A stretch of DNA of 61,497 nucleotides from a virus (IMGVR_UViG_3300030104_001836:1-61497), one strand, 5' to 3'. Counted from the first letter of the stretch, positions 1 to 54,249 are shown. Numbers and translations: made by a program. The notes: generated by a model not told the origin, from the sequence alone.

Positions 1-1
1 G

Positions 2-99
2 TTCTTATAATATGAATAAAGAAGTAGAAGCAATAATTAAAACTGTTTGTGAAGAAACAAACATAACCTTTGTTGAGTTGTGTAGTAAAAGGAGGTCTG
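2..99. repeat. Terminal direct repeat, left copy (98 bp; circular assembly overlap)
   Basis: 2-99 is identical to 61400-61497. Confidence 0.95.
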
Positions 100-329
100 G
101 TAAGTTAACTAAGGCTAGAATTATATTTGTTATTTTATGTCAAAAAATATTAGGTAGTTCTTTGGCAGAAATAGGAGAGTACATATCTAAAAATCATGCT
201 ACAATATCAAGGTATGAAAAGAGGTATGACGAGGAAAATTGGGAGAATGCTTTTATAAGCAATAAAACAAATTACTTTGATACGCTCTATAAAAAAACAG
301 TAAAGGAAATTAGCAATGGAAGAGTCTAA
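12..329 (+). CDS. DnaA C-terminal (domain IV)-like HTH protein
   Basis: IIKTVCE..ITFVELCSKRRSGKLTKARIIF..SLAEIGEYISKNHATI matches the Bac_DnaA_C pattern; GGAGG SD across the circular junction. Confidence 0.75.
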   Translation: MNKEVEAIIKTVCEETNITFVELCSKRRSGKLTKARIIFVILCQKILGSSLAEIGEYISKNHATISRYEKRYDEENWENAFISNKTNYFDTLYKKTVKEISNGRV

Positions 330-744
330 AGGATTTTCTAAAGATGCAATAGTTAGAATTAATAATGAAAGGGATAATGTAGTGACTAAAAGAATATTAA
401 AAATAATTGAAGATAAAGAAGGAGAAATTAATCCTATTACAAATTTACATGAGTCTCCAGTTTATCATATTATGTTTGATGATGCCACAGAGAGAAAATT
501 ATTTCGTCATAAGATGATTGAATATTTGTCAATGGCTTATGGTAAATCTGTACAAAAATTTAAAAAAGTAATTGTTATAACAGATGTAAGCAGTACAGTT
601 GTCTGGGTAGTTGTTACCCAAGATTATCAATTAGATGTATTGCCACCACCTAAATTTTATAGAAAAATAGAAGATGGTCACAGTAATAGAGATTTAGAAA
701 TTAATAGAAAGTTTCAATGGAATTACGAAAAAGCAAACCAATGA
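316..744 (+). CDS. hypothetical protein
   Basis: 142-aa ORF overlapping the previous gene, AAGGA SD. Confidence 0.7.
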   Translation: MEESKGFSKDAIVRINNERDNVVTKRILKIIEDKEGEINPITNLHESPVYHIMFDDATERKLFRHKMIEYLSMAYGKSVQKFKKVIVITDVSSTVVWVVVTQDYQLDVLPPPKFYRKIEDGHSNRDLEINRKFQWNYEKANQ

Positions 745-965
745 GAGTTAAAATATTTAGTGGTTTAGATTTAGTTTTTACTAAAGATTTTCCTCAAAAT
801 AAAACTTATGAAGGAGCTTCTATGTCACTTGAATTTGATAATAACATTAAAACAAAAAATCCAAAAATTACAAAATCTAAATTTGAAACAGAAGAAGTAG
901 AGTTTTGTGAATACGAAGGGTATGACAAAGAAAATAAAAAATACAAAGTAATAATGACAAAATGA
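741..965 (+). CDS. hypothetical protein
   Basis: ORF 717..965; ATGA-coupled start MRVKIF at 741 is more likely. Confidence 0.6.
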   Translation: MRVKIFSGLDLVFTKDFPQNKTYEGASMSLEFDNNIKTKNPKITKSKFETEEVEFCEYEGYDKENKKYKVIMTK

Positions 966-1228
966 AAGTACATGAATACAATATTGGCACACCCATGTGG
1001 TCTAGCCAAAGCATAGGTTTATCTGAGAGTCGAATTAACAGACATCAGATTTTAGATGTTTCCATACTTCATAAGGATGCTTATGGAAATAGGACATTTC
1101 CAGACAAATATCGAGTAACAAAAAAATTTGCAGAGAAATATCCAAAACGAACATTTAAAAATATGAGAGAACAAATGTATGTTATCCCAATAGATGATCT
1201 ACCTGTCTCTCCAGAGGAGGACAAATGA
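962..1228 (+). CDS. hypothetical protein
   Basis: 88-aa ORF with ATGA coupling. Confidence 0.7.
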   Translation: MKVHEYNIGTPMWSSQSIGLSESRINRHQILDVSILHKDAYGNRTFPDKYRVTKKFAEKYPKRTFKNMREQMYVIPIDDLPVSPEEDK

Positions 1229-1244
1229 CATAGCTGAATTTTTT

Positions 1245-1308
1245 AGACGGCAGGTCTTGGTACTCCCTTTCTTTTTATTTATACAAATCCAAGACTTGTC
1301 GTTTTTTT
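1245..1308 (+). terminator. Long hairpin plus U-tract ending the plus-strand operon; possible sRNA
   Basis: 1245-1260 pairs with 1289-1304 (16 bp, 3 G-U), 28-nt loop, then a T run. Confidence 0.65.
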
Positions 1309-1511
1309 GTTTTCCCACCAACCTCCCCGTGCTCTCTTATCTATTTTATATGCTATTAGAGCTTTCTCCGGCCAAACTTTTTCAAAATGCTTTTAAACCC
1401 ATAAAAATTAACGCTGGTTAAGTTTTTATAGTTCTGTAGTGCAATCACACCAAAGACATTTAATTTAAGCATTTACGATACCTTTATGTTATGTTTTTTT
1501 AAGTTTTAGAC

Positions 1512-1544
1512 AAAAAAAAATGTCGCCACACCGAAGCATGACGA
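1512..1544 (-). terminator. Rho-independent terminator of the late operon
   Basis: Minus strand TCGTCATGC-TTCG-GTGTGGCGA (cUUCGg loop) then T9, directly after the last late gene. Confidence 0.85.
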
Positions 1545-1823
1545 TTAAATTAATTCCTTATAAGAAACTGTTAAATATTCGATTGTAACACCCCAAGATT
1601 TTGGAATAGCTATTTCTCCACCACCATGATTGTCATCTTTATCTGTACACCATGATCGCATAATAACTATTCTTTCTTTATCATTAACAATCATCCATCC
1701 TACTTCTTGACAAATAGCTAATCGTGCCTTTTGAATTTCTTCAAAAGATTTCCAACCTGTTTCTGCATCACGAGCATCTTTCCAAGTTAAACGAACCATT
1801 GGATATTTATTAATGTCTACCAT
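1545..1823 (-). CDS. hypothetical phage protein
   Basis: 92-aa ORF coupled to the upstream ORF. Confidence 0.75.
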   Translation of the reverse strand: MVDINKYPMVRLTWKDARDAETGWKSFEEIQKARLAICQEVGWMIVNDKERIVIMRSWCTDKDDNHGGGEIAIPKSWGVTIEYLTVSYKELI

Positions 1824-1963
1824 TACAATCTTACTAAACCTACTTTGTTACCATAAATTAATGACGGGCCTTTCTTTTTTACTTTCTTTTTCTTTTTCTT
1901 TTTTTGTCTTTTTGTTGGTTTTCTTTTAGTTGTCATTGGTAATTTTGAACGAGATATAACCAT
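1823..1963 (-). CDS. Lys-rich microprotein (46 aa), not in ORF track
   Basis: MVISRSKLPMTTKRKPTKRQKKKKKKKVKKKGPSLIYGNKVGLVRL; TAATG coupling at both ends. Confidence 0.7.
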   Translation of the reverse strand: MVISRSKLPMTTKRKPTKRQKKKKKKKVKKKGPSLIYGNKVGLVRL

Positions 1964-3672
1964 TAAAAACCTTTCATTTTAAAACCAGATAATCCTTTAC
2001 CATCTACCATTCCGCCTTGAGAAAAATATTGTTGAGGATTACCTATGTAATTTGTTGAACCACCATATGGTGCACCACCAAATAAAAATTCTTGTGCTGT
2101 TGGATCATAAAAACCACCAGCTAATTGCATTTGTTCTGGCCCACCTGTGTAATTAGGTACAAAACCTTCGTCTTGTCTATATTGACGAACAAGACTATAA
2201 TCTGGAAGTGTTGTAGTAGTAGTGTCATCTTGTTCACCACCACCGCCACCTCCACCTCCACCAGTATTAATACCAGCATTATTTTGTTGTGATTCACCAG
2301 TCATTGGGTTTTTACCCATACGATCAAGTTCCATACGAGCATTAAATATTTGTTGTTTTAAAAAAGGATCACTTACAGATCCAGCATCTAAACCAGCTAA
2401 GTCTGCTAAACCACCAGAGGTTGCAGGGGGTGGATTTATTTTATAATAATCAGCTTGAGTACCATAATAATTTTTATCAAAGTTTTTATTACCAATGTTA
2501 GCACCAACTAAAACATCTTCAAATTCTTGGATTGAAGGATTTTTGTAATTACCTTTTCCTCCTTTTCCTTCTGTAAATAAATCAGTAAAACCTTCTGGAT
2601 TTTTTTCAATAATTCTATTTATATATTCTTGTTTTAATTTTGCTGTTTCTTCCGCAGTTTTACCTGTTATTGAATTAAGTTTATTTAATATGCTTGCCGC
2701 TCCTGCCGAACCAAGAAATTTATTTTCATAAGCTGGTGTTTTTAATGCACTTTTAAGTAAATTAAATGTAAAAAAATCAGATATTTTCATATCACTAAGT
2801 TGATTTAAGTTTTCAGCCGCAAACTTTTCTTCAGCCGCACCTAAACCTTTTATGGCACTAATAATATCTTTTTCTGGTACTCCTTGACCTATTAATCTTC
2901 TGTAAGCACCATACATTTTACCACTTACTTCACCTACACCTTGTATAAAATATTTTGTTTTACCATCTTTTGTTTCTTTTCTAGTTTCATCATCATCATC
3001 ATCATCATCATCAAATTTCATTTCAGTATCATCATCACTACCATCACCTTTACCTGTGCCATCACCTATGCTAAATTCACCTTCATTTACACCACCTGCA
3101 CCTGCTAGAGTTCCACCTACTGGTTTTCCACCTATATTTGAAATACCCGCATTTAGCATAGTTGCGGCCGCATATTGATTTGGATCCATTGGGGTAGATA
3201 CACCAGATAAATATGATGAGCCACCCGGAATAGGATCATTATTTGGTTTAACATAATTTAATCCTTGTTGTAATCCGGGGTCAACTGTATTTGGTTGAGT
3301 TGCATTATAAATTGATTGTCCAACACTGCTAGTTCCAGAACTAGAACCAGAACCTTGACCACTACCTATTGTAGAATAATCTGCTCCTCCACCATGAGGA
3401 CTACCACTACTAATAACATTAGAAGAAAAAGGTGTACTGCTAATTTTTTCTTCTCCAATTGCAGTGTCCTCTGCACCCATACCATCTAAACTAATAATAC
3501 CTTTTGGCCCCATGTTAGGTTTACCATTCATTGATCCATGTATGTTTGCTTGTACAAGCATATCAATTTCTGGTTGCGTTATATAAGCTAACTGTGTGTC
3601 TGGTGCATCTGGAGATGACTTCCATCTTACAGGTGCTTTAACCTCTTTTGTTTTTCCTAAATAATTTTTCAT
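1963..3672 (-). CDS. Gly-rich low-complexity protein, putative internal virion protein
   Basis: 569 aa; N-terminal LAYITQPEIDML..GPKGIISL, poly-D and poly-G tracts, C-terminal SQGGMV. Confidence 0.6.
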   Translation of the reverse strand: MKNYLGKTKEVKAPVRWKSSPDAPDTQLAYITQPEIDMLVQANIHGSMNGKPNMGPKGIISLDGMGAEDTAIGEEKISSTPFSSNVISSGSPHGGGADYSTIGSGQGSGSSSGTSSVGQSIYNATQPNTVDPGLQQGLNYVKPNNDPIPGGSSYLSGVSTPMDPNQYAAATMLNAGISNIGGKPVGGTLAGAGGVNEGEFSIGDGTGKGDGSDDDTEMKFDDDDDDDDETRKETKDGKTKYFIQGVGEVSGKMYGAYRRLIGQGVPEKDIISAIKGLGAAEEKFAAENLNQLSDMKISDFFTFNLLKSALKTPAYENKFLGSAGAASILNKLNSITGKTAEETAKLKQEYINRIIEKNPEGFTDLFTEGKGGKGNYKNPSIQEFEDVLVGANIGNKNFDKNYYGTQADYYKINPPPATSGGLADLAGLDAGSVSDPFLKQQIFNARMELDRMGKNPMTGESQQNNAGINTGGGGGGGGGEQDDTTTTTLPDYSLVRQYRQDEGFVPNYTGGPEQMQLAGGFYDPTAQEFLFGGAPYGGSTNYIGNPQQYFSQGGMVDGKGLSGFKMKGF

Positions 3673-3836
3673 TTCTTCTCTTTCTTGTTTTTGGGTTTGG
3701 TATCACTCTTTCCTTTAGTCATTAAATCGTTGACAATTAAAGCCATTGTTTTTTTATCCAATGGCTTAAATTTGTCTGACTTTTTTTTAGTCTTGAGTCT
3801 TCTGCCAGAAGAAATACGAGATGGTTCTCTTTGCAT
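3669..3836 (-). CDS. basic microprotein (55 aa), not in ORF track
   Basis: MQREPSRISSGRRLKTKKK...; start/stop overlaps at both ends. Confidence 0.6.
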   Translation of the reverse strand: MQREPSRISSGRRLKTKKKSDKFKPLDKKTMALIVNDLMTKGKSDTKPKNKKEKK

Positions 3837-3973
3837 TATTTCTTCTTTGCTTTTTTCTTTGCTCTTTTTTTCATGGATTTCTTTTTACCTTTGACCATTC
3901 CGCCTCCACGCATCATAGTCATGTTTTTATCCATCATCATTTTTGCTCTTTTTTTTGGTGATTTTCCAACCAT
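3836..3973 (-). CDS. Lys/Met-rich microprotein (45 aa), not in ORF track
   Basis: MVGKSPKKRAKMMMDKNMTMMRGGGMVKGKKKSMKKRAKKKAKKK; AGGAG SD. Confidence 0.7.
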   Translation of the reverse strand: MVGKSPKKRAKMMMDKNMTMMRGGGMVKGKKKSMKKRAKKKAKKK

Positions 3974-4503
3974 ATTTTATTTCTCCTATAAGTTTGTCTT
4001 AATAATACAGTATCTTGATAGTATTCTTTATTCCACTTATCATAATACCCTTGTTTATGAAGATCGCTTGATGCTTTCTCCAGCTCTTTAAAAGGCTGAA
4101 TGAGAACCATATAAAATTCATTCTCTAATTCAAAATCACCTTCTAAAAATTCTACTTCTTCCTCGCCTTCATCATCTGGATGAAAAGGCATAAGGTATAC
4201 ATCATCCATTACAAATGTATGGTTTAATGCATTAATGTAACAACTTAGCTCATCTATTGTAATATTCATATCATCAGAAGCTACAATAATAAGTTTTTTA
4301 TTTTGTTCTTGTATTGTTCTTGCTTCCTTTACAACAGTAAACAAATAATCTTTTGCATTTTTTACCTCAACAATTTTTACTTGATCTTTTAATCGAGCTT
4401 GTTTTGCATAAGGACAAATAGGCCAATCATTAAGTTTGTTGCTTTTCTTTTCAACAAAATTAATTGACCAATTTAATATATCTTTTGTTATTTTTTTTCG
4501 CAC
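3937..4503 (-). CDS. DUF1415-like protein
   Basis: WPICPYAK and MPFHPD motifs. Confidence 0.55.
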   Translation of the reverse strand: MRKKITKDILNWSINFVEKKSNKLNDWPICPYAKQARLKDQVKIVEVKNAKDYLFTVVKEARTIQEQNKKLIIVASDDMNITIDELSCYINALNHTFVMDDVYLMPFHPDDEGEEEVEFLEGDFELENEFYMVLIQPFKELEKASSDLHKQGYYDKWNKEYYQDTVLLRQTYRRNKIWLENHQKKEQK

Positions 4504-8106: not shown

Positions 8107-11100
8107 CTAGTCTACCAGTTGAGAAAAATCTAAACCATAGTATTTTTCTAATGCTTTAATTTGATCAATAATTTCTAGTCTTTGTGTTTTAGGTGCTAAT
8201 TTTAAATCTTTGTCTATTTGACTAAAAAATGAATCTTTAATCATTCTTTTAATACCAGTCCTACTAATTTCTATACCATTTTTAATAGCTTCTTCTATAA
8301 TAAATGTAAGTGCAACATTAAGATTTTCATAATCATCACCATATTTACGAACAGCAATGTTAATATTAGTTCTAACATCTTCTAAACTTTTAAGTTTTTT
8401 TTCTTTATTAGAACGAATATTTTGCGTTAAATCATTAAATTGTGCAACCTTTGTAGGTTCAAAACCAAATGTCATTCTAAATACATCACTTAATGTTAAT
8501 TCATATTTAATACTTTGATTTTTATAAGGGTTTGTATACACAGGTTTTTGATCACCTTGTAATGTTTCAGCCATTTTATTTGTAAATAATTCTGTATCTG
8601 TAGCTATTGTAATAAGAGGCATACCACCAGCCATAGCTTCTATAGATTTTAAAGGTTTAAATGCTGGAGATAAATTAACTAAATGATCTACAGCAGTAGC
8701 TCCTTCTTGTTTTAGTTTACTAGATGTAATTAATGTATTAACAAAAGGCCCATAAAAATCTGAAATTTCTGATGGTAAAAATTTATCACCAAATCCAACT
8801 CTATTTGTTAAGTTAATACCTACACCTGTGCCACCTTCAGATATAATTGCTGGAGCACCATGAGTAATAAATTGACCAACCATTCCATTTAAATTTCCTT
8901 TAGCACTTTCATTAATTGCCCATTCTTTTAAATCTTCATCTGGTTCGTATTCTCCACCAGTAAACAATGATATAAGTTGACTTAATAACATATATGCTGG
9001 ATGACCTAATGCACCAGCTAATACAAATGTAGATGCTAAAAATCTAGGAATTTCTGCACCTCGTAAACCAGATATAAATACTAACTCTTGTATAAACCAG
9101 TTTTTAAATTGTAATGGCACACGCAAAAATGTATTTCTAAGCACACCGGGTTTAGCCGCATTATCATAACTAAATTGTTGTTGTTGTATTGCAAACAATC
9201 CAGATTTAATTGCTTGTTCTCTATTTTTTCCTTGTTTTTCTGCTTTAATGTATCCAGCAAAAAATGATGTAGCTCGGTTTAAAGACTCTGCACTTTGAAA
9301 CCATAACATAGATAGTTGACCAAGTTTTGATTGCTCTGTAAATATGTCTGGTGCTCTGTCAGAATAAAAATATGAAGATTTAATTTCTGCTTTTTGTGCA
9401 AGTAATAAAGCATCCATTGCCGCATTAACTTTACTAGCACTATAATTTTTTCTATTTTCTATAATTTCTCTGTAATCATTTCTAGCTAATCTATACAAAG
9501 CAGGAGTAGCTCTTCTAAATCCAGCAGATGTAAGAACAGCACCCATTTTACTATAAGTGTTTAAACCTATTTGTGATAAGTTAACAAGAGCAGATGATAA
9601 ATTAAAGAAAGCTCCAAGTTTTAAATGAGCAGACAAAGATAACATATCGCCTGTAATGGCACGACTTTTTCTTTGTGTTTTACCCATTGATCTTGCCATC
9701 ATTATGGATGTTGCACCACCAATAACAAGAGGAGCAACTGGGCCACCTATAATAAATGGTGTTGCAATAGCACCTATACCTGCCGCATAAAATACTTTTT
9801 TAGGAACAGATTTTTCTAAAGTGTTTAATGCATTGTCTACACTTCTTTCTAAACTTTGAGGGTTATTATTTAAATCACTCCACCAACTTCTTAAATAACT
9901 AGCTATTGGTTCAGCATCACCAGATACTTCACTAACTTCACCCCAACCTTTACGTTCCATAAGGTTTACATAATCATACTTTAATTCATCCATGTAAACA
10001 TACTTAGAAACAGAACCAGCAAATGTTCTAAATACTTTGTCTAAGTTTTTATCATATCCAGCAACACCTCTTCTTTTTAAAGAAAACTCTGGTATTCTTC
10101 TTCTGTTTTTTCTTTTCATTACATCTTTGATATTACCTCGTAACTCTTCAGCAGTGTATTTTTCTGATAAATTTTCAGTTAAAGAGTTCATAATTGATCT
10201 GTATTCTTGATCATTTAATACAGTAGCATCGTTAGAATATATTTGTAAATCAGTAGGTTCAACACGAATTACATCTGTAGGATTATTTTTTATGTGTTCT
10301 TGTGCCGCTTTTATTGCATCTTCTTTACTACTAAAAAATAAAGTATTTTTACTAGATTCAACAGCACTTGCTATTGATTCTATTTCTGCATCAGTTCTGC
10401 CTTGGGCTTTCAATCCTTCTATAGCTTGTTGGCTTAATTGAGGAGTAATTAAATTTTCATATATTTCATTGTTATTTTCATCTACCTCTTTTAAAACTTT
10501 TAATTTAAAATTACCAAAAAATTTATGTGGTACATAACCAACTTTTCTTCTTACAGATGTGCTTTGTAATTTATTTTCTTCAATGTAATATTTTTGATAA
10601 GCATTAATAAAAGAATTAAATGTTGTAGGTGACGTATTAATTAATGGTATACTATAAATTCTTTCATCTATTTCTAATAATTCAGCTAATTGCGTTTGTG
10701 GATTACCAATACCATTTCTTATTTGTCGCATTTTATTAGATCGTTGTACCATTAATCTTTTAAAGTCAGATAAAGAATCTGGACTAATTAAACTATTTAA
10801 ACGAGTTCGTATTAATGCTTGTGCCGATCTTACTTTAGGCAACATACTTCTTCTGTGTTGATCTATATATTTACCAATTTTATCAAATAACAATCTAATT
10901 TCTTTGTACATTGCTATTTCATTGTTACTAAACTTAACAGATTTAATTTTATTTATTTCATTAGTGCTAAATCCTTGACTTCTTAAATCTGCTATTTCTT
11001 GTTTAGTTAAAGTAAAACCTTCTTGTAATTCTTTATCAGTAAATACTTTTTGTGATGCATCACCAACAAACAATATATCAACAACTTTAGAAAATTGTGA

Positions 11101-14100
11101 TCCTTTATATTTAGTTCTAATATTTTTGTATCTATCAATAAAAGTTTTAGATCGTACTCGTATTTTAGATTCATACTCTATTGCTTTTTGAATTAACTTG
11201 GCTATTGATTTATCTTTTAATTGATTAGCAGTAACATAAGTTGGTAAAATATATTTTAAAAGAATTGTAAAACTTGGAAGAATACCTTCTTTAGTTGTTT
11301 TAGATAAGGTTTCTTCTGGTATATGTATTCTATCTGTAGATGATCTATCTTTATCAATAAATGGATCAATTCTTTTTTTGTTTTTTATAATCTTAAACAA
11401 TGAAGTAAGGGTATTCCTTGACCTTTTTATAACATTATCTTTAGTATTATTTTCATTCATGTCTGGAGGAGTAGCCATTGCACCAACTGATCTTGGTGTA
11501 GGGTCTCCTTCATTCTGTAAAATAACTTTTTCTTTAGATTCTTTTGCTATTTCTCTTTCTTTAATAGTTTGAAAGTTAATTCCATTTTCTGCATAATAAG
11601 GTAAAACATAATTTTCTAATACATCTAATTTAGTTGTAGCAGACCATGTTCTACCATCAGATGACTTTTTAAAATCTAAGTCAACCATGCTTTCACTACT
11701 CTTATCTAATCCTCTTTCTATTAAATCTTTTCTTGTAGTAAATACAGTTGCACTATCTCCTCCTGTTTTTTGTATACGCACATCTCCACTATAGGTTTTT
11801 AATTCACCAAATTTACTATTGTAAAGATATGACGTTGCCGCTTGGTAATCAAGCAGAACAGGAATACTAGCTTCTTCTTTTTCATGTTTATAGTTTTTAG
11901 GCATAACAATAGTTTGTATTATTGTACCATCGTTTCTTTGTAGTTTAGCAACTTGACCACCTTTAACAATAGCTGATCCAGTTAACAAATTGCCTGTAAC
12001 AATATACCTTGTTTCTCTTACATTTTCTTGACCAGATACAAACAATTGATCAATTGATTTTCCTTCCGGTGTTGTTGATGCATTTTCAATTCTATTTTCA
12101 GATGATAAATTTCCTTGGTTATCAATAAATCTTGATAAACCTAATGTAATTTTTTGTGCATCACCTTGTGCTAAAGCTATTTTAATTTTAAAACTACCAG
12201 TATTTGTAGCTGTAGATGTTCCTTCATGTTTTCTATCAAGAATAATACCATGTTCAACTATAGCGTTATCTTTTCCTGTGTTTAAAGAAATCCTTACTTG
12301 TGTTCCTACAGGAAAACTTTTTATATTTCTTGTTATTTGATTTTTAACATCTTGTAATTTTTTAACTTGTGATTGTATTTGTGCTGGTTTTTTTGTTGTG
12401 TCTTGACGAATTTTTTCTATAGCAGTATCATATATTTCAACAGCTTGATTTAATTGTTTTTCATTATATTCATCAACTTTTTCTTGAACATTTTTTGTAT
12501 TTAATTCTACATTTTCTGTAGTTAAATCTAAAGTAGTTCTTAATTCTTTTTGTAATTGTAAAGGTGTTAAAGGTTTAGTTTTTTTATTAATAGATACTTG
12601 TTCCATGTAAACTGGTTGTTGAAATATAGTTCCAGTTGTTGAACCATCTTGTATCATATCTACTTCACCAATAGATATTGCATCTGCTTTAGTTAGATTA
12701 GCCATATCTAATGTGTTAGTTCCAAATGCTGTTTCTTCTTCTTTTAACTCTACATATCTTTTTGCAACAAAATCATAATATTCAGTAGCTAATGCTGGAT
12801 CAAATATTAATAAACTACTAGAAACTTTATTAGCAATACCATCTATTTTTCCTGTTAAATCTATATCTAATACATCTCTAATTTCTGCATGAGATTCTAA
12901 AAATTCTTTTGTAACATTATCTCCTAAAGTATTAAAGAAATCTAAAGAGTCCGATGTAGTGTAAACTGAGTCTTGACCACCAGTAACAGTAGCATTTAAT
13001 GATGCCATTTTTTTTGCTAACATAGAAGATAGTCTTTGTTCTGCTGGATGATCAGTTGTCATTATAGTATACTTAGGAAGACTTACTTGTCCTGTTCTAA
13101 ATATACGACCTAACATTTGTAGGTAAGTATTAATTTCTGGTTCAGCTTCTAAGACAATCATGTGTCTTTGTTTTTTATCTTTAGCTCTTTGATCAGAATG
13201 CATAGAGTAACCAGTAGATGCACTTTGATTTATAACTAATACATCTAAGTCACCATTTTGAAAACTATCTATTCTTCTTCTTTTTTTAATAGAGGAGTCA
13301 CCTCTTGGTGTTATAATACCCTTTGAATCTATAGCGTATTGTCTACCTGTAATTTCTCCTACTTTAATATTAGAATTTCGTAAATTGTTAATAATATTAT
13401 CTACTGGATTTAAAGTTAAATTACCAAAATCAGTATCTCTTATTCTACCTTTTAATTCTTCAATTTGTTCTACTAAATTACCTTCACCAAATTCATTAAC
13501 TTCTTCATTAGTTAATTTTTTTCTTGCAGTATAAATAGGAACATCTGCTTTTGGTACTTTAACAGACATAGAATATTCTAAAGCACGATCTAGATACTTT
13601 AATAATAAATCATTATAAGTAAGTGTAATTCTATCACCAGCTTTTAAACTTTTATCTGCCATTATTTGACGAAGTAAATTTTCACCTGTTCGTGAAACTG
13701 TAATAACAACTTTTCTTTGATTGTTTTTTACTTCATTGTTTGCATAATTAACAGCATCGTTTACTTTAAAACTTGTCATTAACATTGTAGAAATATTGTA
13801 CATTTGTGATTTAAAATCACTAGGAACAACTCTACCTTGTAAACCTGTTTTTGCTTGTGCAGATGCAAAATCTGGATCAGAAGATGCAATTTTTTTAGCT
13901 ATGTCAGATAATTGCATATCAATTAAATGTATGTCTAAAAATAAATCAGAAATTTGTTTTGCTAATTCTTTATCGTGTACAACACCTTTTCCATCATTGT
14001 AAACACTATACTCTACACCATCAAAACTTCTTTCAACACGTCTATATTGACCTGTTTGTGCTAACATATTAGTTACAATTTGTTGTAAAGGAATACCTCT

Positions 14101-17100
14101 TGTTTGCATAACATCAACAAATTGATCAGAATCTGGTATAGATTCTTGTATATCTGTATTCATATACAAATCCATAACAACAGGATTTTTAGCCCATGTT
14201 GCAGAAGAAAATACTGCACCTCTAGAATTATTTAAAGCGTGTCTAATAAAAGTAGCACGAGTATTTATTTTGTCAGCTTTTACTTTTCTATTAGAACTAC
14301 CACCAGCGTTGTGACTTTCATCTAAAATAAATATAGCATTTGGTGCAATTGATTCTATAAAATTATGTCTAGCTTTATTAATAGGAGTTTTAAAACCTTG
14401 TTCATCTGCTTTTGAATCTCTATTTAATTGATAATAAGTTGTAAAAATATAATCATAATTATTTTCTAACATACCTTGATCACTAGATAACTTATTTAAT
14501 AAAGCCTCATGTTTTTCTCTTGTTTCAGTTTTAAAACCTTCTTCATTAAGAGAACTTAAATCTACAGTATGATTATTGTCAGTAGGTAATATTTTCATAT
14601 TAGATACATCTTCGCCAATATCTTTCATATCACGAATCATATCAGTATATAAACCAGATTTATGTGTAACAAAAACAACGTGTTGAGCATTTTTCTTTGC
14701 ATATCGCATAAGTGCGGCTACAACTCTACCTTTACCTATTCCTGTTTGATCACCTAAAACAAATCCTTTGTTTGCTTTTAATTGATCAATAGCTAAACCT
14801 AATGCTTCTATTTGTTCTGAACCAAATTTATCATTTACTTCATCTAAACTCATATCTAAATTATCAGCAACATATTGTTTAATGTCACCAACACGAACAT
14901 CTAAGTTACGCAATCCTTTACCAGAAGATGCTAATAACTCTATTGGCATATGAGTGTCTAAAGAATTACCTTTTACTTTAGGATTATATTTAGTTTGAAA
15001 TAATGTATTTCTTTCACCTTGAACATTTTTATATTCAGATTGTATATCTGTAGCAAAACGAACAAATGCACCCATAGATGTTTTCCATTGTTCACTATTA
15101 CTTCTAGCTTCGTTTTTTTGTTCTGGTGTTAAAGAAGTATCAATAAATGATCTGTCAATATCATTAATTAATGATTTCATTGCACTTTGAAAAGGCAATC
15201 CAGCTTTACTATGTTGATCTAATCTTTTTAATAATTGAGGTTTTACTTTATCATATGATTCTTTTGTAGGTTTTATAGTAGGAACACCAAATATTTCTGC
15301 TCCATATTCTACTTGTCCTACACCAGAATCTGGAGTAGCAGAAGCTCCTGCATCCTCTGGAGGTGTTATTCTAGATTTTAAATCATTTAAACTACTAGCA
15401 AAATCATCAAAATCTTCTTCAAGTTTTTCTTGATGATATCTATTTATGTTAGGTGATAACTCTGGATATTTATTTTTTGTTGTGTCATATATTTGTTGTA
15501 ATAACTCTTGTTGATCTTCCATTGTATCAATAAGAGTTTCCTCAATATCATTTTGTAAATAGCTTGGTATTTTAGTTTTTTTAAATCCTTGTAAAGTAGT
15601 AGCATCATAATCTAAATATACTTCTTCAAAAATGTCATAATCATATGTAAAAACATCTTTAATAATTTGTTTATCGTTATTATTTAATCCTTCTATCTTT
15701 CCGATGTCACTGGCGAGGCTTCGTTCAGCCACGACATTATCGTGCTTTCGTTGAGCGTTGTCTCGTAATTCTTGTTGGGTTTCAGTTGTATCGGGAACTG
15801 AACTTGATTCAATTCCTGTGACAGTATCTCCCAACTGTCCAGACACATTTCCAGTAATGTTGTCCCCAACGATCCTTCCTTCAACTTCGTTTCTAGATTG
15901 AACATCCTGTCCCTCGATGGGATCAACAGATTCATCCTCTCTTCTAGGTCTTCCTCGTTCTCCGCTAGTATCTGGAGTCGGTTTGCTAACAGATGTAGGT
16001 ACTCCTCGTACCCCAGTTGTAACTCGTTCTGATGACCCACTAACGTCAGTATCGGGTTGCTCTCTACTGCCCAGAACGCTTTCGCCTCTTTCAACGTCAG
16101 TAATGTCGGTAATTGTTTCAGTGTCTCGCTCACTCACTTCCTCCTTTTGTTCTGCGAACTCCGGTAGGGGAGGAGTCTCTGGTGGTTTTTTATCATAGTT
16201 TTTATTTTTAATATACTTAATTGCATCTTTTATTGGTTTTACCTTAATTTCTTTGGTTTTTTTTCTAATTAATTTACCAGTTGCTTCTTCTTTAATGTCT
16301 AAAGTTGCTTTATTTATTTCATTTATTAAAATTTGAAAATCATTTGGATTACTAGGATTAGTTTGATTTACTAAATATAATCTATCTAATCTATTAGTAT
16401 TTGTAAGTTCATTAACTCTTTGTGCATATGCACTTTCTACATCTTGTAAATATTTTTTACCTGCTACGGATGGATCTATAATTTCTCTTCTATATGCATC
16501 TATAGCATTATAATATTGATTTAGTTTTGTTAATGGTGATCTAGGATCATATAATTTAAATATACCTTGACCATAAGTTATATCGTCTTCTTTTTTTTGT
16601 ACAGCTTGTTCTCTTTGAGTTACTTTATCTTCTACTACAGGTGTTTCTTTTGTAACTGCATCAGTATCTTCTAATGTAGATAGAAAACCAGCCATTTCAT
16701 CTTCTGTTAAAACATTTTTTTCTTCTTCTTTTTTAACAGGCTCAACAGGTGTAGTAGTAGGTTCAGCAAATATTTTTTCAGCCGTAGTTAAAGGTTTTTC
16801 CTCAACAACAGGTGCAACAGCTTCTGGTGTAGTCTCTTCTACTACAGGAGTTTCTTTTACTACAGGAGTAGGTTGTTCTACTGGTCTACCTTCTAATTCA
16901 GCTATTCTTTTATTAATAGCATCAAAGTTTTTTTGTACTGTTTTGTTTTCTAATTTGCCTTGTTCTATATATCTAGATGTAACTTTTAATGCAGATAAAT
17001 TATTTTCTTGAGATAATAAATTATCTAATGGTAATTGTGTTAGTTCATCTTTAAGAGTTTCATTGTCACTTGCAATGGCTTTACCCATTTGTCTATTCCA

Positions 17101-18969
17101 ACCATTGTCACCTGTAATAGAATCTACTTTAATTTTAGGTGTAGGTGTTGGCTTACCTTTTTCAAATTGTTCTCTTTTTTTTGTAAGTTCTTCTAATCCT
17201 TCTTCTAAACCAGTTTTAATTTCGCCTTGCTCATCTCTAATAAGATCATCTTTAGGTAATTGTTTTTGTAAAGATTCTATTTGTGTATCTAATTTTTCTA
17301 TTTTTGGTTTATTAATTTCTTTTTGTTCTTCTGAAAAAAAAGGATTGTCTAAACTTGTTTTTTGTAAAGTTAAATCTGTAATTTCTTTTTGTATGTCTAA
17401 TGCACTTTTATCTGTTTTATCTACAACTTCTTCTTCTACAACACTTTCTTCTATATCATCTCTTGATTGAAATTGTGGTTTACCTTCTTCAAGATTTTTT
17501 TGTTGCATTTCTTCATATGCATCAACTTTAGTTTTAGTTTCTGGTTTATCTAACCAATCTATTTTTAAATCTCTATCTAAAGGTTCTTCAACAATACCAC
17601 CATCATCTAGTTCAACTCTTATGTTTTTACTTGTAGACCCATCATCATTAAGAACAACAGGATATTCTACAACACGACCTTTTCCTATAGGTTCACCAGA
17701 TTTAGTTAATACAATGTTATTAGAACCAACAGGAGGATATCCATCTGGAGAACTATCTGGTGCTACTTCATCTGGTGTTCCAACTTCAGTTGCTTCTTGA
17801 GTTGCTTTTTCTGTATCACCCTCAATAGTTTCAGAACCATCATCTTCTAAAATAGTTTTTTCATCTACTTTATCTTCTAGTTTTTCTTTTCTTTGTACAC
17901 CACCACTTATGCCACCAAATACAAGACCAGCTACAAATCCCGGCCCAAATTGTTCACCTGCATAATCAAATGTTTCTCTTTCTTTATTGTATGTTTGTTC
18001 TATTAAATTTTGTAAAACATTTTGAAATTCTTCTGTTCCACCTTCCCATACACCTTGAGTAACTGATTGTTTAAGTATATTAGCAATTCTACTTTTTACT
18101 CCCGGAACAACTTTATTAAAACGATTTAATAATATTTGAACAGGTAAATAATCAGCAGAACCCGGAGCAACACCAAGTATAGTTGCCATAACAACATCAG
18201 TTTCATCAGTGTCACCATCAAAAGCATATACACGATCTACAGATTCGCCACCTTCCATTGCTATTGCAGTTCCAAGACCAGCTACAGTTCCAACACCAAA
18301 TGGAGCACCAACAACTGAAGCACCTATAATAGGAATAGTGCTACCAATACCTTCAAAACCTTTGTATATTGTATCTGCTAATTTATTATCTTTCCATCGT
18401 TGATCTTGCGGAAATGTTTCTTGTGCAAATTGTTGTAATTCTTCACCAGCTTTAAAAAACTCTGACTCTTTAGCAGAATATTGATTTCTATATGTGTCAA
18501 CTATTTGTTCTGCTCTATCAACAATTTCTGGACTATATTGATCTTTTTCATTTAATATACTAAGAGCGGCTCTATATTGTGCAGTTACTTCCTGTAAATC
18601 ACCAGAAAAATAATCTGGCATTTTTTCAAGACCAGCACCATATTTAAGACCAGAACCTACAGCTTGTATTGTACCAGCAGGTATTGCAGATGTAATTAAA
18701 TCTGCACCAAATTCTGGAAGAGTAGTTAAACCAAATGGTTTTTCTTCTTTAGGTTCTTCTTCTATTGTTTCGGGGGAGGGTTGTACAGACGTTCCTGTAA
18801 GTCTAGATGTGTCAAATGCATTTGTATCTGTGGTAAGAAATTCAGTAAATAATCTTTTATCTGGATATCTATCTTGATATTGACTGTATAACTCGTTTAT
18901 TAAATCTTCATCACTATATAGTAAAAAATTTCTATTATCTTCACGAGCAAGTTCTAAAGGTGTTGGCAT
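8107..18969 (-). CDS. Giant polyvalent internal-virion/ejection protein with Strawberry-notch SF2 helicase
   Basis: 3620 aa; GDQTGIGKGR, ILDESHN, SSATWAK, GEITGR, SASTGYSMHS, QMLGRIFRTGQ; last gene of the ejection-protein cluster. Confidence 0.8.
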   Translation of the reverse strand: MPTPLELAREDNRNFLLYSDEDLINELYSQYQDRYPDKRLFTEFLTTDTNAFDTSRLTGTSVQPSPETIEEEPKEEKPFGLTTLPEFGADLITSAIPAGTIQAVGSGLKYGAGLEKMPDYFSGDLQEVTAQYRAALSILNEKDQYSPEIVDRAEQIVDTYRNQYSAKESEFFKAGEELQQFAQETFPQDQRWKDNKLADTIYKGFEGIGSTIPIIGASVVGAPFGVGTVAGLGTAIAMEGGESVDRVYAFDGDTDETDVVMATILGVAPGSADYLPVQILLNRFNKVVPGVKSRIANILKQSVTQGVWEGGTEEFQNVLQNLIEQTYNKERETFDYAGEQFGPGFVAGLVFGGISGGVQRKEKLEDKVDEKTILEDDGSETIEGDTEKATQEATEVGTPDEVAPDSSPDGYPPVGSNNIVLTKSGEPIGKGRVVEYPVVLNDDGSTSKNIRVELDDGGIVEEPLDRDLKIDWLDKPETKTKVDAYEEMQQKNLEEGKPQFQSRDDIEESVVEEEVVDKTDKSALDIQKEITDLTLQKTSLDNPFFSEEQKEINKPKIEKLDTQIESLQKQLPKDDLIRDEQGEIKTGLEEGLEELTKKREQFEKGKPTPTPKIKVDSITGDNGWNRQMGKAIASDNETLKDELTQLPLDNLLSQENNLSALKVTSRYIEQGKLENKTVQKNFDAINKRIAELEGRPVEQPTPVVKETPVVEETTPEAVAPVVEEKPLTTAEKIFAEPTTTPVEPVKKEEEKNVLTEDEMAGFLSTLEDTDAVTKETPVVEDKVTQREQAVQKKEDDITYGQGIFKLYDPRSPLTKLNQYYNAIDAYRREIIDPSVAGKKYLQDVESAYAQRVNELTNTNRLDRLYLVNQTNPSNPNDFQILINEINKATLDIKEEATGKLIRKKTKEIKVKPIKDAIKYIKNKNYDKKPPETPPLPEFAEQKEEVSERDTETITDITDVERGESVLGSREQPDTDVSGSSERVTTGVRGVPTSVSKPTPDTSGERGRPRREDESVDPIEGQDVQSRNEVEGRIVGDNITGNVSGQLGDTVTGIESSSVPDTTETQQELRDNAQRKHDNVVAERSLASDIGKIEGLNNNDKQIIKDVFTYDYDIFEEVYLDYDATTLQGFKKTKIPSYLQNDIEETLIDTMEDQQELLQQIYDTTKNKYPELSPNINRYHQEKLEEDFDDFASSLNDLKSRITPPEDAGASATPDSGVGQVEYGAEIFGVPTIKPTKESYDKVKPQLLKRLDQHSKAGLPFQSAMKSLINDIDRSFIDTSLTPEQKNEARSNSEQWKTSMGAFVRFATDIQSEYKNVQGERNTLFQTKYNPKVKGNSLDTHMPIELLASSGKGLRNLDVRVGDIKQYVADNLDMSLDEVNDKFGSEQIEALGLAIDQLKANKGFVLGDQTGIGKGRVVAALMRYAKKNAQHVVFVTHKSGLYTDMIRDMKDIGEDVSNMKILPTDNNHTVDLSSLNEEGFKTETREKHEALLNKLSSDQGMLENNYDYIFTTYYQLNRDSKADEQGFKTPINKARHNFIESIAPNAIFILDESHNAGGSSNRKVKADKINTRATFIRHALNNSRGAVFSSATWAKNPVVMDLYMNTDIQESIPDSDQFVDVMQTRGIPLQQIVTNMLAQTGQYRRVERSFDGVEYSVYNDGKGVVHDKELAKQISDLFLDIHLIDMQLSDIAKKIASSDPDFASAQAKTGLQGRVVPSDFKSQMYNISTMLMTSFKVNDAVNYANNEVKNNQRKVVITVSRTGENLLRQIMADKSLKAGDRITLTYNDLLLKYLDRALEYSMSVKVPKADVPIYTARKKLTNEEVNEFGEGNLVEQIEELKGRIRDTDFGNLTLNPVDNIINNLRNSNIKVGEITGRQYAIDSKGIITPRGDSSIKKRRRIDSFQNGDLDVLVINQSASTGYSMHSDQRAKDKKQRHMIVLEAEPEINTYLQMLGRIFRTGQVSLPKYTIMTTDHPAEQRLSSMLAKKMASLNATVTGGQDSVYTTSDSLDFFNTLGDNVTKEFLESHAEIRDVLDIDLTGKIDGIANKVSSSLLIFDPALATEYYDFVAKRYVELKEEETAFGTNTLDMANLTKADAISIGEVDMIQDGSTTGTIFQQPVYMEQVSINKKTKPLTPLQLQKELRTTLDLTTENVELNTKNVQEKVDEYNEKQLNQAVEIYDTAIEKIRQDTTKKPAQIQSQVKKLQDVKNQITRNIKSFPVGTQVRISLNTGKDNAIVEHGIILDRKHEGTSTATNTGSFKIKIALAQGDAQKITLGLSRFIDNQGNLSSENRIENASTTPEGKSIDQLFVSGQENVRETRYIVTGNLLTGSAIVKGGQVAKLQRNDGTIIQTIVMPKNYKHEKEEASIPVLLDYQAATSYLYNSKFGELKTYSGDVRIQKTGGDSATVFTTRKDLIERGLDKSSESMVDLDFKKSSDGRTWSATTKLDVLENYVLPYYAENGINFQTIKEREIAKESKEKVILQNEGDPTPRSVGAMATPPDMNENNTKDNVIKRSRNTLTSLFKIIKNKKRIDPFIDKDRSSTDRIHIPEETLSKTTKEGILPSFTILLKYILPTYVTANQLKDKSIAKLIQKAIEYESKIRVRSKTFIDRYKNIRTKYKGSQFSKVVDILFVGDASQKVFTDKELQEGFTLTKQEIADLRSQGFSTNEINKIKSVKFSNNEIAMYKEIRLLFDKIGKYIDQHRRSMLPKVRSAQALIRTRLNSLISPDSLSDFKRLMVQRSNKMRQIRNGIGNPQTQLAELLEIDERIYSIPLINTSPTTFNSFINAYQKYYIEENKLQSTSVRRKVGYVPHKFFGNFKLKVLKEVDENNNEIYENLITPQLSQQAIEGLKAQGRTDAEIESIASAVESSKNTLFFSSKEDAIKAAQEHIKNNPTDVIRVEPTDLQIYSNDATVLNDQEYRSIMNSLTENLSEKYTAEELRGNIKDVMKRKNRRRIPEFSLKRRGVAGYDKNLDKVFRTFAGSVSKYVYMDELKYDYVNLMERKGWGEVSEVSGDAEPIASYLRSWWSDLNNNPQSLERSVDNALNTLEKSVPKKVFYAAGIGAIATPFIIGGPVAPLVIGGATSIMMARSMGKTQRKSRAITGDMLSLSAHLKLGAFFNLSSALVNLSQIGLNTYSKMGAVLTSAGFRRATPALYRLARNDYREIIENRKNYSASKVNAAMDALLLAQKAEIKSSYFYSDRAPDIFTEQSKLGQLSMLWFQSAESLNRATSFFAGYIKAEKQGKNREQAIKSGLFAIQQQQFSYDNAAKPGVLRNTFLRVPLQFKNWFIQELVFISGLRGAEIPRFLASTFVLAGALGHPAYMLLSQLISLFTGGEYEPDEDLKEWAINESAKGNLNGMVGQFITHGAPAIISEGGTGVGINLTNRVGFGDKFLPSEISDFYGPFVNTLITSSKLKQEGATAVDHLVNLSPAFKPLKSIEAMAGGMPLITIATDTELFTNKMAETLQGDQKPVYTNPYKNQSIKYELTLSDVFRMTFGFEPTKVAQFNDLTQNIRSNKEKKLKSLEDVRTNINIAVRKYGDDYENLNVALTFIIEEAIKNGIEISRTGIKRMIKDSFFSQIDKDLKLAPKTQRLEIIDQIKALEKYYGLDFSQLVD
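15693..16133 (-). CDS. Nested +1-frame gene inside the giant protein gene (146 aa)
   Basis: AAGGAGG 6 nt before a GTG start; outer-frame codons become C/G-ending over this span. Confidence 0.65.
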   Translation of the reverse strand: MSETLKQLPTLLTLKEAKAFWAVESNPILTLVGHQNELQLGYEEYLHLLANRLQILAENEEDLEERMNLLIPSRDRMFNLETKLKEGSLGTTLLEMCLDSWEILSQELNQVQFPIQLKPNKNYETTLNESTIMSWLNEASPVTSER

Positions 18970-22017: not shown

Positions 22018-22361
22018 TAAGTTAATTTATTGCCTTTTTCTAAATTATTCATCATATCATACATAGGTTTAGCACCACCAGCATTTTTTACAGCTTTTGC
22101 TGTAAAGACAAACTCACCATTACTTAACATAGCAGGAATATCATCTGAAGTTCCTGTTCCCGGCCCATTAATCATACCAGTTTTTTTAGGAAAACCACCT
22201 GCGGCAAGTTGTAATATACTTACAATACCACCTTTTGATTTTCCAAATTTTTTTTGCAATATATTTAAAAGTTTATTTATATCAGTTTCTAATTTAATAC
22301 CCTTAATACCAGTAGGTTTTTTTTTCTTTTTTATTTGTTTATTAGTTTTAGGGAATTTCAT
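22017..22361 (-). CDS. small basic virion-associated protein
   Basis: GPGTGTSDDIPAMLSNGEFV motif, of a kind seen in tape-measure/internal proteins. Confidence 0.6.
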   Translation of the reverse strand: MKFPKTNKQIKKKKKPTGIKGIKLETDINKLLNILQKKFGKSKGGIVSILQLAAGGFPKKTGMINGPGTGTSDDIPAMLSNGEFVFTAKAVKNAGGAKPMYDMMNNLEKGNKLT

Positions 22362-51255: not shown

Positions 51256-51433
51256 AATTTGTTTTATCTCTCTATATGTAATATGTTTAATTAGTGGCTA
51301 AAAACAGGGAAAAACTAATATTTTTTTTAAAGCTTTGTTTTGGCTGTTTTTGGCTGTTTTCTGGGGAATTCATGTTTTACTTTTTTACTCCCTTTTTACT
51401 GTTTATTTACTATAATTATTTTAATTAAATCTA

Positions 51434-51450
51434 TTGTAATAATTTCAAAT
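51434..51450 (+). promoter_or_regulatory. operator/promoter repeat 1
   Basis: TTGTAATAATTTCAAAT. Confidence 0.65.
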
Positions 51451-51493
51451 CTATATTAAATCACTAACTATGAATAATAAGAAAGGTTATAAA

Positions 51494-51814: not shown

Positions 51815-52213
51815 TTACATACTGAATTGATCAACACTTTTAAACTGATATTCCATATCGTCTGTGTCTGGCTCTTGTAATAGTTCTTTTTCTAAATAAC
51901 TTGGTAAATGATGATGAGGAATATCACGAACTTTTTTATTTTCAAAATGTCTATCCCTTTCAATACCTAAACCAAAACGACCTTTTACGCTTTCTAATTC
52001 TGTAAGGGAAAATGTGCCGTATTCATTTTCAAATCCAGAAACATAACCGTAGAAAATTTTGTTTTCTGGGTCATATTCTGTAGCGTACCAAGTCCAAGAG
52101 CCAGTAGGATCAAAGAACTTGACAATTATTTCAGCATTTAAACCCTTTTCTTCTTGCGAATAAAAAGGAAATTTAAGGGCTTTTTTCTCTATTTCTTTTG
52201 TCATTAGTTGCAT
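51815..52213 (-). CDS. DUF2958 family protein
   Basis: VKFFDPTGSWTWYATE, EYGTFSLTEL, IERDRHF. Confidence 0.8.
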   Translation of the reverse strand: MQLMTKEIEKKALKFPFYSQEEKGLNAEIIVKFFDPTGSWTWYATEYDPENKIFYGYVSGFENEYGTFSLTELESVKGRFGLGIERDRHFENKKVRDIPHHHLPSYLEKELLQEPDTDDMEYQFKSVDQFSM

Positions 52214-52255
52214 TTTTTCAACCTTTCTTTTTATTAATAATTATTTATAAATTAT

Positions 52256-52272
52256 ATTTGAAATAATTACAA
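52256..52272 (-). promoter_or_regulatory. operator/promoter repeat 2
   Basis: Minus strand TTGTAATTATTTCAAAT, in a divergent intergenic region. Confidence 0.65.
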
Positions 52273-52317
52273 ACATATTATAAAAGAATATTAATAATAA
52301 TTAGAAAGGGTTTAATT

Positions 52318-52500
52318 ATGAAAAACGAAATAAATAAATTATTGATAGATAGTATCAATATAAATAATATTAATAAAATGAAATTATCTAAATTAAATTT
52401 TATTAATGATCTTCTTGATGGTAAATTATCAGAAGAAGAAAAAACAAAAAGAATTAATAAGATATTTTTAGAAGAAGAAAAAAGAAAGGGTAAAAAATGA
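52318..52500 (+). CDS. hypothetical early protein
   Basis: GAAAGGG SD. Confidence 0.6.
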   Translation: MKNEINKLLIDSININNINKMKLSKLNFINDLLDGKLSEEEKTKRINKIFLEEEKRKGKK

Positions 52501-52592
52501 ATTTTAAACAAATGATGACAGTATTTTTTACAGGTTATTTTACTTGTATTATTTCTTTTGCTTTCTTTCACATTTTTACGATGGTCGTATAA
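52497..52592 (+). CDS. 31-aa TM peptide, not in ORF track
   Basis: MNFKQMMTVFFTGYFTCIISFAFFHIFTMVV; GAAAGGG SD, ATGA coupling. Confidence 0.55.
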   Translation: MNFKQMMTVFFTGYFTCIISFAFFHIFTMVV

Positions 52593-53025: not shown

Positions 53026-53052
53026 AAGGGGCGTAATAACTACGCCCTTTTT
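53026..53052 (+). terminator. Rho-independent terminator
   Basis: GGGCGTA/TACGCCC stem plus T run. Confidence 0.75.
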
Positions 53053-53885: not shown

Positions 53886-53911
53886 AAAAGGGGGGAAACC
53901 CCCTTTTTTTT
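53886..53911. terminator. bidirectional terminator
   Basis: AAAAGGGGG-GAAA-CCCCCTTTT between convergent genes. Confidence 0.85.
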
Positions 53912-54056
53912 ATTTTATTCTTTGCAAAATAACATCATCATAACCTTGACTTATCCAGTAGTCATAATCTCTTTTTGCATCTTTGTAATGTAAATAATAA
54001 TCATCACAACCACCTACCCAAACTATCCATGAATAAGTCATTTTATGATGTTTCAT
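53910..54056 (-). CDS. 48-aa protein, not in ORF track
   Basis: MKHHKMTYSWIVWVGGCDDYY...GYDDVILQRIK. Confidence 0.6.
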   Translation of the reverse strand: MKHHKMTYSWIVWVGGCDDYYLHYKDAKRDYDYWISQGYDDVILQRIK

Positions 54057-54192
54057 GTTCTAATTCTTCTTGTGAAATAGCTATTTTATCGCTTTCACTA
54101 TCCCAATAATCTTGCATTGGATCACGATCTGGATCATATCCAAGCTGTTCAATTAATTCAGCTTTTTCTTTTTTTCTATTATTTTCTGGCAT
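54043..54192 (-). CDS. 49-aa acidic protein, not in ORF track
   Basis: MPENNRKKEKAELIEQLGYDPDRDPMQDYW..; GAAAGGTGG SD. Confidence 0.6.
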   Translation of the reverse strand: MPENNRKKEKAELIEQLGYDPDRDPMQDYWDSESDKIAISQEELEHETS

Positions 54193-54249
54193 AAAACCAC
54201 CTTTCTTTAATATTTATATAAAAAAATGTAAAAAAAAGCAATTTAATTG

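Follow-up and report, generated by a model that had tools for sequence, protein, structure and literature searches.

Does the large loop of a hairpin at the end of a phage replication operon act in trans on early genes, or does it belong to an ordinary transcription terminator? The hairpin lies near the start of a virus record, the whole of which (61,497 bases, GC ~30%) was analysed and is referred to here as the window. A sequence-only reading of this DNA had proposed that the hairpin closes a middle operon and that its loop, antisense to several ribosome-binding sites (RBSs), forms part of a 3′UTR-derived sRNA that shuts off early-gene translation in trans. The analysis favours, with a probability of about 0.7, an ordinary terminator with an odd loop, in which the resemblance to early leaders is most likely incidental or reflects a small inverted leader copy.

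Bases 2-98 recur as the last 97 bases of the record (window 1-98 / 61401-61497), which indicates an assembly overlap and a presumably circular or terminally redundant genome; given this repeat, the ORF at 12-329 has an AGGAGGA RBS at the end of the record. The replication/recombination operon runs on the plus strand from ~58.6 kb across the record junction to 1228 and encodes an Erf-like protein (Erf recombinase; 59682-60413), an HNH protein and a DnaA-C-terminal-domain protein (12-329). The late operon extends on the minus strand from ~51.25 kb down to 1545 and includes TerS, TerL, portal, capsid and tail proteins together with lysis genes; the two operons converge between 1228 and 1545. The last ORF of the plus-strand operon had no match in PHROG or Pfam, and its homologues in three IMG/VR contigs are 95%, 68% and 49% identical.

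Three proteins of the genome deserve a separate remark. The 105-aa protein encoded at 12-329 contains the DnaA C-terminal helix-turn-helix domain (PF08299, 58.9 bits), and its gene lies ~1 kb 5′ of a conserved non-coding element described below. A small protein encoded at 56811-57032 contains a LexA-type DNA-binding domain. A 3620-aa ORF of the late operon, at 8107-18969 on the minus strand, carries AAA_34, Helicase_C_4 and ResIII domains (Strawberry-notch-type helicase domains) at residues 1384-2009; its product resembles a giant polyvalent virion protein or an injected one, and its homologue in the relative G007 is called at 4143 aa.

GenBank phages gave no DNA match to window 1-1900 in near or distant mode, and the best GenBank TerL matches, Pelagibacter phages among them, are 37-46% identical. 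Relatives were found in marine metagenome contigs and marine metatranscriptome runs. The tRNA/tmRNA search of the window returned none, and Rfam 15 gave no match over the whole window at gathering scores; a search of 1150-1600 gave two matches at chance level (E 0.74 and 2.9). The coordinates of the features discussed here are collected in Table 1.

Table 1. Coordinates of the putative terminator, its neighbouring elements and the leaders that its loop matches.
Feature	Coordinates	Strand	Basis or detail
ORF of 88 aa, last of the plus-strand operon	962..1228	+	ORF list
Invariant 14-mer ATGACATAGCTGAA overlapping the stop of ORF 962-1228, preceded by GGAGGA	1225..1238	+	10/10 sequences, two clades
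Putative terminator stem, 5′ arm	1245..1260	+	fold; 95.8% of cells paired, 6 distinct sequences
Loop TACTCCCTTTCTTTTTATTTATACAAAT, 28 nt, G-free, pyrimidine-rich, contains CUCCCUUUCUUUUUAUU	1261..1288	+	unpaired in MFE and centroid
Putative terminator stem, 3′ arm	1289..1304	+	fold; compensatory G-C to A-U at one position, G-U/G-C swaps at two neighbouring ones
Putative terminator U-tract TTTTTTTGTTTT	1302..1313	+	kept in all relatives, G007 included
Conserved non-coding C-rich, G-poor element TTTTCCCRCC..CC..CCCC..GCTCTCT..TTAGAGCTTTC..CCAAACT	1305..1385	.	three clades
Predicted small-loop terminator of the convergent late operon	1523..1544	-	terminator scan
RBS of gene starting at 51494	51473..51486	+	13/14; strongest duplex among all start sites, -16.9 kcal/mol
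RBS/leader of the DUF2958 gene (51815-52213)	52222..52235	-	14/14 complement of loop 1266-1279
RBS of gene 52318-52500	52296..52310	+	13/15
RBS of 31-aa ORF 52497-52592	52479..52490	+	12/12
RBS of gene 54043-54192	54200..54208	-	9/9; 21/23, one gap, over longer leader

The stem comprises 16 pairs, of which seven are G-C and three are G-U (1246-1303, 1250-1299 and 1253-1296). The plus-strand MFE is -22.8 kcal/mol (z -4.22), which is equalled by one of 200 shuffles, whereas the minus-strand fold is poorer (-16.2 kcal/mol, z -1.65, 12 of 200 shuffles), in agreement with the earlier claim that the G-U pairs place the hairpin on the plus strand. The T-run at 1302-1308 is followed by a G and then by TTTT. 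The hairpin starts 17 nt past the stop codon of ORF 962-1228, opposite the minus-strand terminator (1544-1523), and an A/U-rich single-stranded stretch, GAAUUUUUU, lies just 5′ of the stem. From the stem pattern, the U-tract and the position past the last stop codon, facing the late terminator, hairpin 1245-1313 is interpreted as the Rho-independent terminator of the plus-strand operon, as had been proposed.

The loop is the unusual part. Loops of intrinsic terminators are usually small, typically 3-10 nt, and in the other convincing intergenic terminators that the genome contains they measure 3-8 nt; at 28 nt, this loop is unusually large, as the sequence-only reading had noted. A scan for hairpins followed by a T-run, with loops of up to 40 nt, gave 21 candidates, among which 1245-1304 is the sole intergenic large-loop case; a terminator scan restricted to loops of 3-8 nt overlooks it. 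The composition of the loop is A7 C6 G0 T15, with no internal pairing and with a UCCC motif. As G-free 28-mers make up 1.7% of the sense 28-mers in the plus-strand operon, the lack of G is unremarkable.

The genes to which the loop is complementary are early genes that share the leader TATnAATAAnAAGAAAGG, in which a -10-like TATnAAT is combined with an AGAAAGG Shine-Dalgarno (SD) sequence. All five matched sites are located 7-8 nt 5′ of an ATG, and the antisense of the loop matches the leaders over longer stretches at 17/18 positions for the DUF2958 gene, 16/18 for the gene starting at 51494 and 21/23 (one gap) for gene 54043-54192. The five complementarities reported by the sequence-only reading were recovered exactly as quoted, and its assignment of the DUF2958 gene was borne out (PF11171, 60.3 bits). 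The minus-strand orientation that it gave to the target mRNAs applies to the DUF2958 gene and gene 54043-54192, whereas the genes starting at 51494, 52318 and 52497 are on the plus strand.

The contrast that had been drawn between early AGAAAGG and late AGGAG-type RBSs also stands. AGAAAGG occurs nine times on both strands; five of the nine are early-region RBSs (four at called genes, and 52482 before the uncalled 31-aa ORF) and one is the minus strand of the loop itself. Late genes mostly use GGAG, AGGAG or AAGGAG, according to a crude list of 98 ORFs that contains some spurious small ones. The leaders matched by the loop belong to a few genes adjoining sigma-70-like promoters.

Two further observations concern the early region. 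The decamer AAAGGGAGTA at 51386-51395 (minus strand) is an exact 10-nt complement of loop 1261-1270; a 28-aa ORF (51287-51373), which heads the leftward operon ahead of terS, follows 14 nt downstream. The palindrome TTGNAAT.ATTNCAA occurs four times between divergent early genes (51434-51448, 52258-52272, 54250-54264 and 54963-54977), where it overlaps -35-like boxes, and an extra copy is found inside the late region at 22209-22225; the four early copies are probably bidirectional promoter/operator sites.

How far the loop matches exceed chance depends on the measure. Of 1500 random genomic 28-mers, 101 (6.7%) likewise have an exact complement of 14 nt or more in another part of the genome, and the 14-mer complement taken alone is therefore unremarkable. 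For the best single duplex energy over 98 start regions (-16.9 kcal/mol), dinucleotide shuffles give p=0.14-0.16 and sense-strand 28-mers 0.087. The sum of the four best duplex energies (-63.7) is equalled by 4/500 dinucleotide shuffles (p=0.008) and by 6/700 sense-strand 28-mers (0.0086), and the loop has eight sites at or below -13 kcal/mol, a number reached by none of 500 shuffles; these RNAduplex energies disregard the accessibility of target and loop. When the loop antisense is aligned locally with the -40..+3 regions, the top score is 31 (17/18 identical; p=0.003), and the top-4 sum is attained by none of 400 random 28-mers. All four best-pairing sites fall within 51.4-54.3 kb, where 9 of the 98 start regions lie, whereas only 5 of 300 shuffles place at least three of their top four there.

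Single-site measures of complementarity thus give p values of 0.07-0.16 and multi-target measures 0.003-0.01, for a case picked post hoc and with targets that are not independent. The scan of the loop against RBSs with controls, which the sequence-only reading had put forward as a check, favours the multi-site match and not the 14-mer or the best duplex on its own. At this locus, the multi-site match to early leaders looks rarer than chance, at p ~0.003-0.01 relative to random genomic 28-mers and shuffled loops. As the early leaders are alike, the matches count as roughly one independent coincidence, and the hairpin was chosen post hoc from a genome with 21 hairpin-plus-T-run candidates; when both are allowed for, the match is mildly significant, at ~0.02-0.06.

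The homologous region was recovered from nine more loci, giving ten aligned sequences with the window. Among the 80 loci listed by a stem-pattern scan of metagenomes, seven were true relatives by BLAST; one IMG/VR pattern match (L008) lies inside a coding region and was discarded as chance. Within the clade of the window, one locus (L030) is identical to it, two (L005 and L016) are ~90% identical, L063 is 86% and L052 82% identical; the sister-clade loci (L006, L049, L034 and L066) have 65-69% identity to the window.

Over six distinct sequences, 95.8% of the stem cells are paired and ten pairs are invariant. The changes consist of one G-C replaced by A-U on both sides and G-U/G-C swaps at two neighbouring pairs, and one G-U pair is invariant; the swap patterns imply that pairing is preserved only in plus-strand RNA. 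Comparison of the two clades shows that the loop varies more than any other segment, whereas stem, U-tract and flanks are nearly identical. The only loop piece common to both clades is ACUCC at its 5′ edge, and the size of the loop is kept in the sister clade (27 nt). The alignment shows that the stem forms in plus-strand RNA and that selection acts on the stem and the U-tract but not on the loop.

Divergence of the loop is already visible within the clade of the window. The L052 loop has three changes, including CUCCC to CUUCC and the loss of a C from UUUCUUU, and the altered C's are exactly those expected to pair with the G's in AGAAAGGG. The L052 contig extends over just 5.6 kb, and the loop was scored on the start regions of the window, where the top-4 sum is -51.8 (shuffle mean -51.9) and one site, not eight, lies at or below -13. 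In the sister clade, the record G001 (24.6 kb) is colinear with the window over the entire early region, and its DUF2958 RBS reads AAAAAGCGAGGT (GCGAGG); the other G001 leaders have diverged too. Against its own 57 start regions, the G001 loop scores at the null median, with p 0.43-0.57 for energy and 0.83 and 0.50 for local alignment. Co-variation between loop and RBS in relatives, which had been suggested as a check, is absent from G001: its DUF2958 RBS has changed without a matching change in the loop.

A more distant relative, G007 (61,846 bp, 100% complete; homologue of ORF 962-1228 at 49%), has an ordinary hairpin with an 8-bp GC-rich stem and an 8-nt loop at the place of the terminator, followed by the same U-tract and downstream element. 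Sequences resembling the arms are present in G007 (L174 1560-1745, minus strand of the locus), ~110 nt apart and not pairing together; the RNA between these remnants folds as a long hairpin of its own (z -4.1), and the GC-rich terminator, a separate and bidirectional one, comes next. The 187-nt 3′UTR of G007 was considered as possible support for targeting, its best 28-mer pairing with start sites at p=0.05 (3/60 random segments); since this score comes from a single GC-rich site with no relation to early genes, it was not counted.

With a terminator kept throughout, while the loop drifts in L052 and G001 and a different hairpin stands in G007, the conserved function at the locus appears to be termination, and the large antisense loop is not conserved. 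The sequence-only reading had itself staked its proposal on a conserved loop, and what was found is a loop that has diverged between kept stem and flanks. With the loop unconserved in the L006 clade, L052, G001 and G007, a trans-acting sRNA that shuts off early-gene translation is not supported.

We therefore favour the ordinary terminator with an odd loop. According to this reading, the terminator would end the Erf/HNH/DnaA-domain operon and would halt transcription running antisense into the convergent late operon, and the hairpin probably also protects or stabilises the 3′ end of the operon mRNA. The likeness of the loop to the leaders would be limited to the near relatives of the phage and could have arisen by chance, given a loop rich in pyrimidines and free of G; alternatively, an early leader may have left a small inverted copy of itself in a loop that tolerates it. 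In either case, the loop is probably no conserved trans-acting seed. Three features fit this reading less well, namely the size of the loop (28 against 3-8 nt, with 27 nt kept in the sister clade), the leader match at p ~0.003-0.01 with its four top targets all at 51.4-54.3 kb, and the ACUCC that both clades share at the 5′ edge of the loop.

The first alternative, which we regard as unlikely, is an anti-leader RNA specific to this lineage, in which the open loop would serve as a seed pairing with the shared leader and SD sequence of five or six early genes. Either within the mRNA or after processing to the hairpin and its U-tail, such an RNA would, with the same low probability, block ribosome binding once the replication operon is transcribed. 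The complementarity to five leaders is exact or near-exact and extends over the -10/SD composite (17/18 and 21/23), the multi-target tests are in its favour (p=0.008 with 500 shuffles, 0.0086 with 700 sense 28-mers and 0.003 by local alignment), the four top predicted targets are all in the early region, and the large loop is unique among the terminators of the phage. The loop is moreover wholly unpaired, G-free and UCCC-containing, features that mark the anti-SD loops of staphylococcal sRNAs (PMC2790875). Yet the proposed seed varies more than the rest of the element, the reverse of known sRNAs, and two of the pairing C's are gone in L052; G001 has neither complementarity nor co-variation, and G007 lacks the hairpin. 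The best single duplex energy is ordinary (p 0.14-0.16), and the five similar targets amount to about one coincidence in a case picked post hoc among 21 candidates.

One target leader does show marked conservation. The contigs G003-G006 contain DUF2958 homologues without the operon end, and in G004 (L096 2941-3000) the DUF2958 gene is preceded by 50 nt that match the window exactly, whereas the protein is just 73% identical, a point in favour of the anti-leader RNA. The DUF2958 RBSs of other relatives are GCGAGG or TAGGAG. This suggests that the DUF2958 promoter/leader module may be under strong constraint or has been exchanged recently.

The complementarity could also stem from DNA rather than RNA, an explanation that we consider still more doubtful. 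The minus strand of the loop, TTTGTATAAATAAAAAGAAAGGGAG, would then be an inverted cassette of early promoter -10 and RBS, either as the decayed start of a minus-strand gene or as a weak antisense promoter, and the RNA complementarity would be a by-product of descent. That the likeness spans the -10-like TATnAAT plus the SD sequence (17/18, 16/18 and 21/23) argues for such a relic, as does the minus-strand TGTATAAAT, which resembles what we take to be an extended -10 consensus; in G007, the arms lie ~110 nt apart with other sequence between them, so the spot evidently accepts insertions. Against it, the minus strand has no start codon 5-12 nt past the SD-like GGGAG, no -35 box is found at the proper spacing, and the promoter scan is blank here; the TTGNAAT.ATTNCAA of the real early promoters is missing, and in a short AT-rich sequence homology is not provable.

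The sequence on either side of the hairpin is conserved in its own right. The downstream element at 1305-1385 is 76% identical to G007, whose neighbouring protein is 49% identical, and its indels of 1 and 2 nt exclude a coding sequence. Its plus strand is rich in C (24 C against 8 G over the 77 nt of 1309-1385), and on its minus strand the G-runs GGGG/GG/GG/GGG are kept with varying spacers. The element matched no Rfam family, and consensus folding of 1205-1525 on both strands gave, beyond the main stem, merely a 5-bp hairpin (GCUCU/AGAGC). A single bacterial-genome match to the downstream element, in a Chlamydiae MAG, was rejected as chance. The element may serve in Rho loading, as an origin or as some other site in the DNA.

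Very unlikely is the last alternative, in which the hairpin is half of a junction element formed with the C-rich 80-nt stretch, its large loop serving that element (a rut-like Rho-loading back-up terminator acting in plus-strand RNA, or else a site in the DNA, for instance an origin or a packaging signal) and no trans target: the stretch does outconserve the neighbouring genes in three clades with a plus-strand C:G of 24:8, follows the U-tract directly in G007 whatever hairpin precedes it, and has a DnaA-C-terminal-domain protein encoded nearby at 12-329, but no consensus structure extends past the 5-bp hairpin, and G007 keeps the C-rich element without the large-loop hairpin, which makes the two separable.

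Upstream of the hairpin, ATGACATAGCTGAA is invariant although the codons around it vary, and it is absent from G007. GGAGGA and ATGACATAGCTGAA together (1214-1238) make an SD sequence plus an ATG-ACA-TAG mini-ORF, and ATGACATAGCTGAA would be single-stranded just 5′ of the hairpin. As a candidate seed it was rejected, for the phage genome contains 13 complements with at most 3 mismatches against 9.5 expected, which is no enrichment. Coding explanations of the hairpin were likewise discarded. An ORF at 1194-1421 (75 aa, hydrophobic), which runs through the hairpin, meets an early stop by a 13-nt insertion in the L006 clade and is disrupted by 1- and 2-nt indels, and a minus-strand coding frame across the hairpin has no start codon. 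Assembled contigs from four marine metatranscriptome runs of one study (X1, X2, X5 and X6; compared with 1-4000) cover 709-1207, 1061-1252 and 1439-1638 free of errors; the contigs cannot reveal RNA ends or abundance, and the uncovered 1253-1438 is an uninformative gap.

The C-rich element, ATGACATAGCTGAA and the palindromic early sites are all conserved better than the loop, and the C-rich element and the palindromic early promoter/operator sites are the better-conserved regulatory candidates in this phage group. We think it improbable that the terminator doubles as a riboregulator in this phage and its nearest relatives, with early genes beside the four palindromic operator-like promoters as targets. 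If it did, the early-to-middle switch would be set by a terminator loop alone, an economical timing mechanism of which a non-exhaustive literature search found no case in a marine phage. The locus is also a cautionary case, as a striking and statistically unusual complementarity between loop and RBS can occur in a single lineage without conservation; claims of this kind consequently need co-variation or RNA data.

Several known systems invite comparison. In the icaR mRNA of S. aureus, a C-rich 3′UTR motif reportedly pairs with the Shine-Dalgarno sequence within one mRNA; the phage differs in that predicted terminators (~53030-53050 and 53886-53908) stand between its plus-strand target genes and the 3′ end at 1245-1313. 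In known 3′UTR-derived sRNAs, the seed is conserved and single-stranded and precedes the terminator, whereas the seed proposed for the phage is in the terminator loop, and its conserved single-stranded piece is ATGACATAGCTGAA, without an enriched target. The phage hairpin shares with such sRNAs, by its position, a terminator common to a protein-coding operon. The regulators described in PMC7038943 and PMC13250501, e.g., NarS, reportedly use the terminator of their parent mRNA likewise, and CisR, which acts on the CTX-phi cep mRNA, demonstrates that control of a phage gene is possible. Candidate UTR-derived ncRNAs have been reported in virulent Pseudomonas phages (PMC10914365).

The Rsa RNAs of S. 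aureus (RsaE etc.) and the loops of RNAIII bind SD regions through an unpaired UCCC motif and block initiation (PMC2790875). The phage shares with these anti-SD sRNAs an unpaired, UCCC-containing loop complementary to RBSs, but the C-rich motif is the most conserved portion of the staphylococcal RNAs (PMC2790875) and belongs to the least conserved portion of the phage hairpin. The staphylococcal RNAs are independent genes with proven expression, whereas the phage case is an operon terminator known from its sequence. In E. coli, the terminator loops of SdsR, RseX and ArrS reportedly determine the regulation of fepA and thereby resemble the phage proposal, in which regulation would likewise depend on an intrinsic terminator loop; they differ in acting ‘likely without base-pairing’, far upstream in the 5′UTR and in dependence on Hfq and RNase E (PMC11979758). 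Compared with intrinsic terminators, the phage hairpin departs in its 28-nt loop, which lies outside their short-loop range, and shares with them a stable stem with a U-tract right after it, G-U pairs that are strand-specific, a compensatory change and a place just past the last stop codon of its operon.
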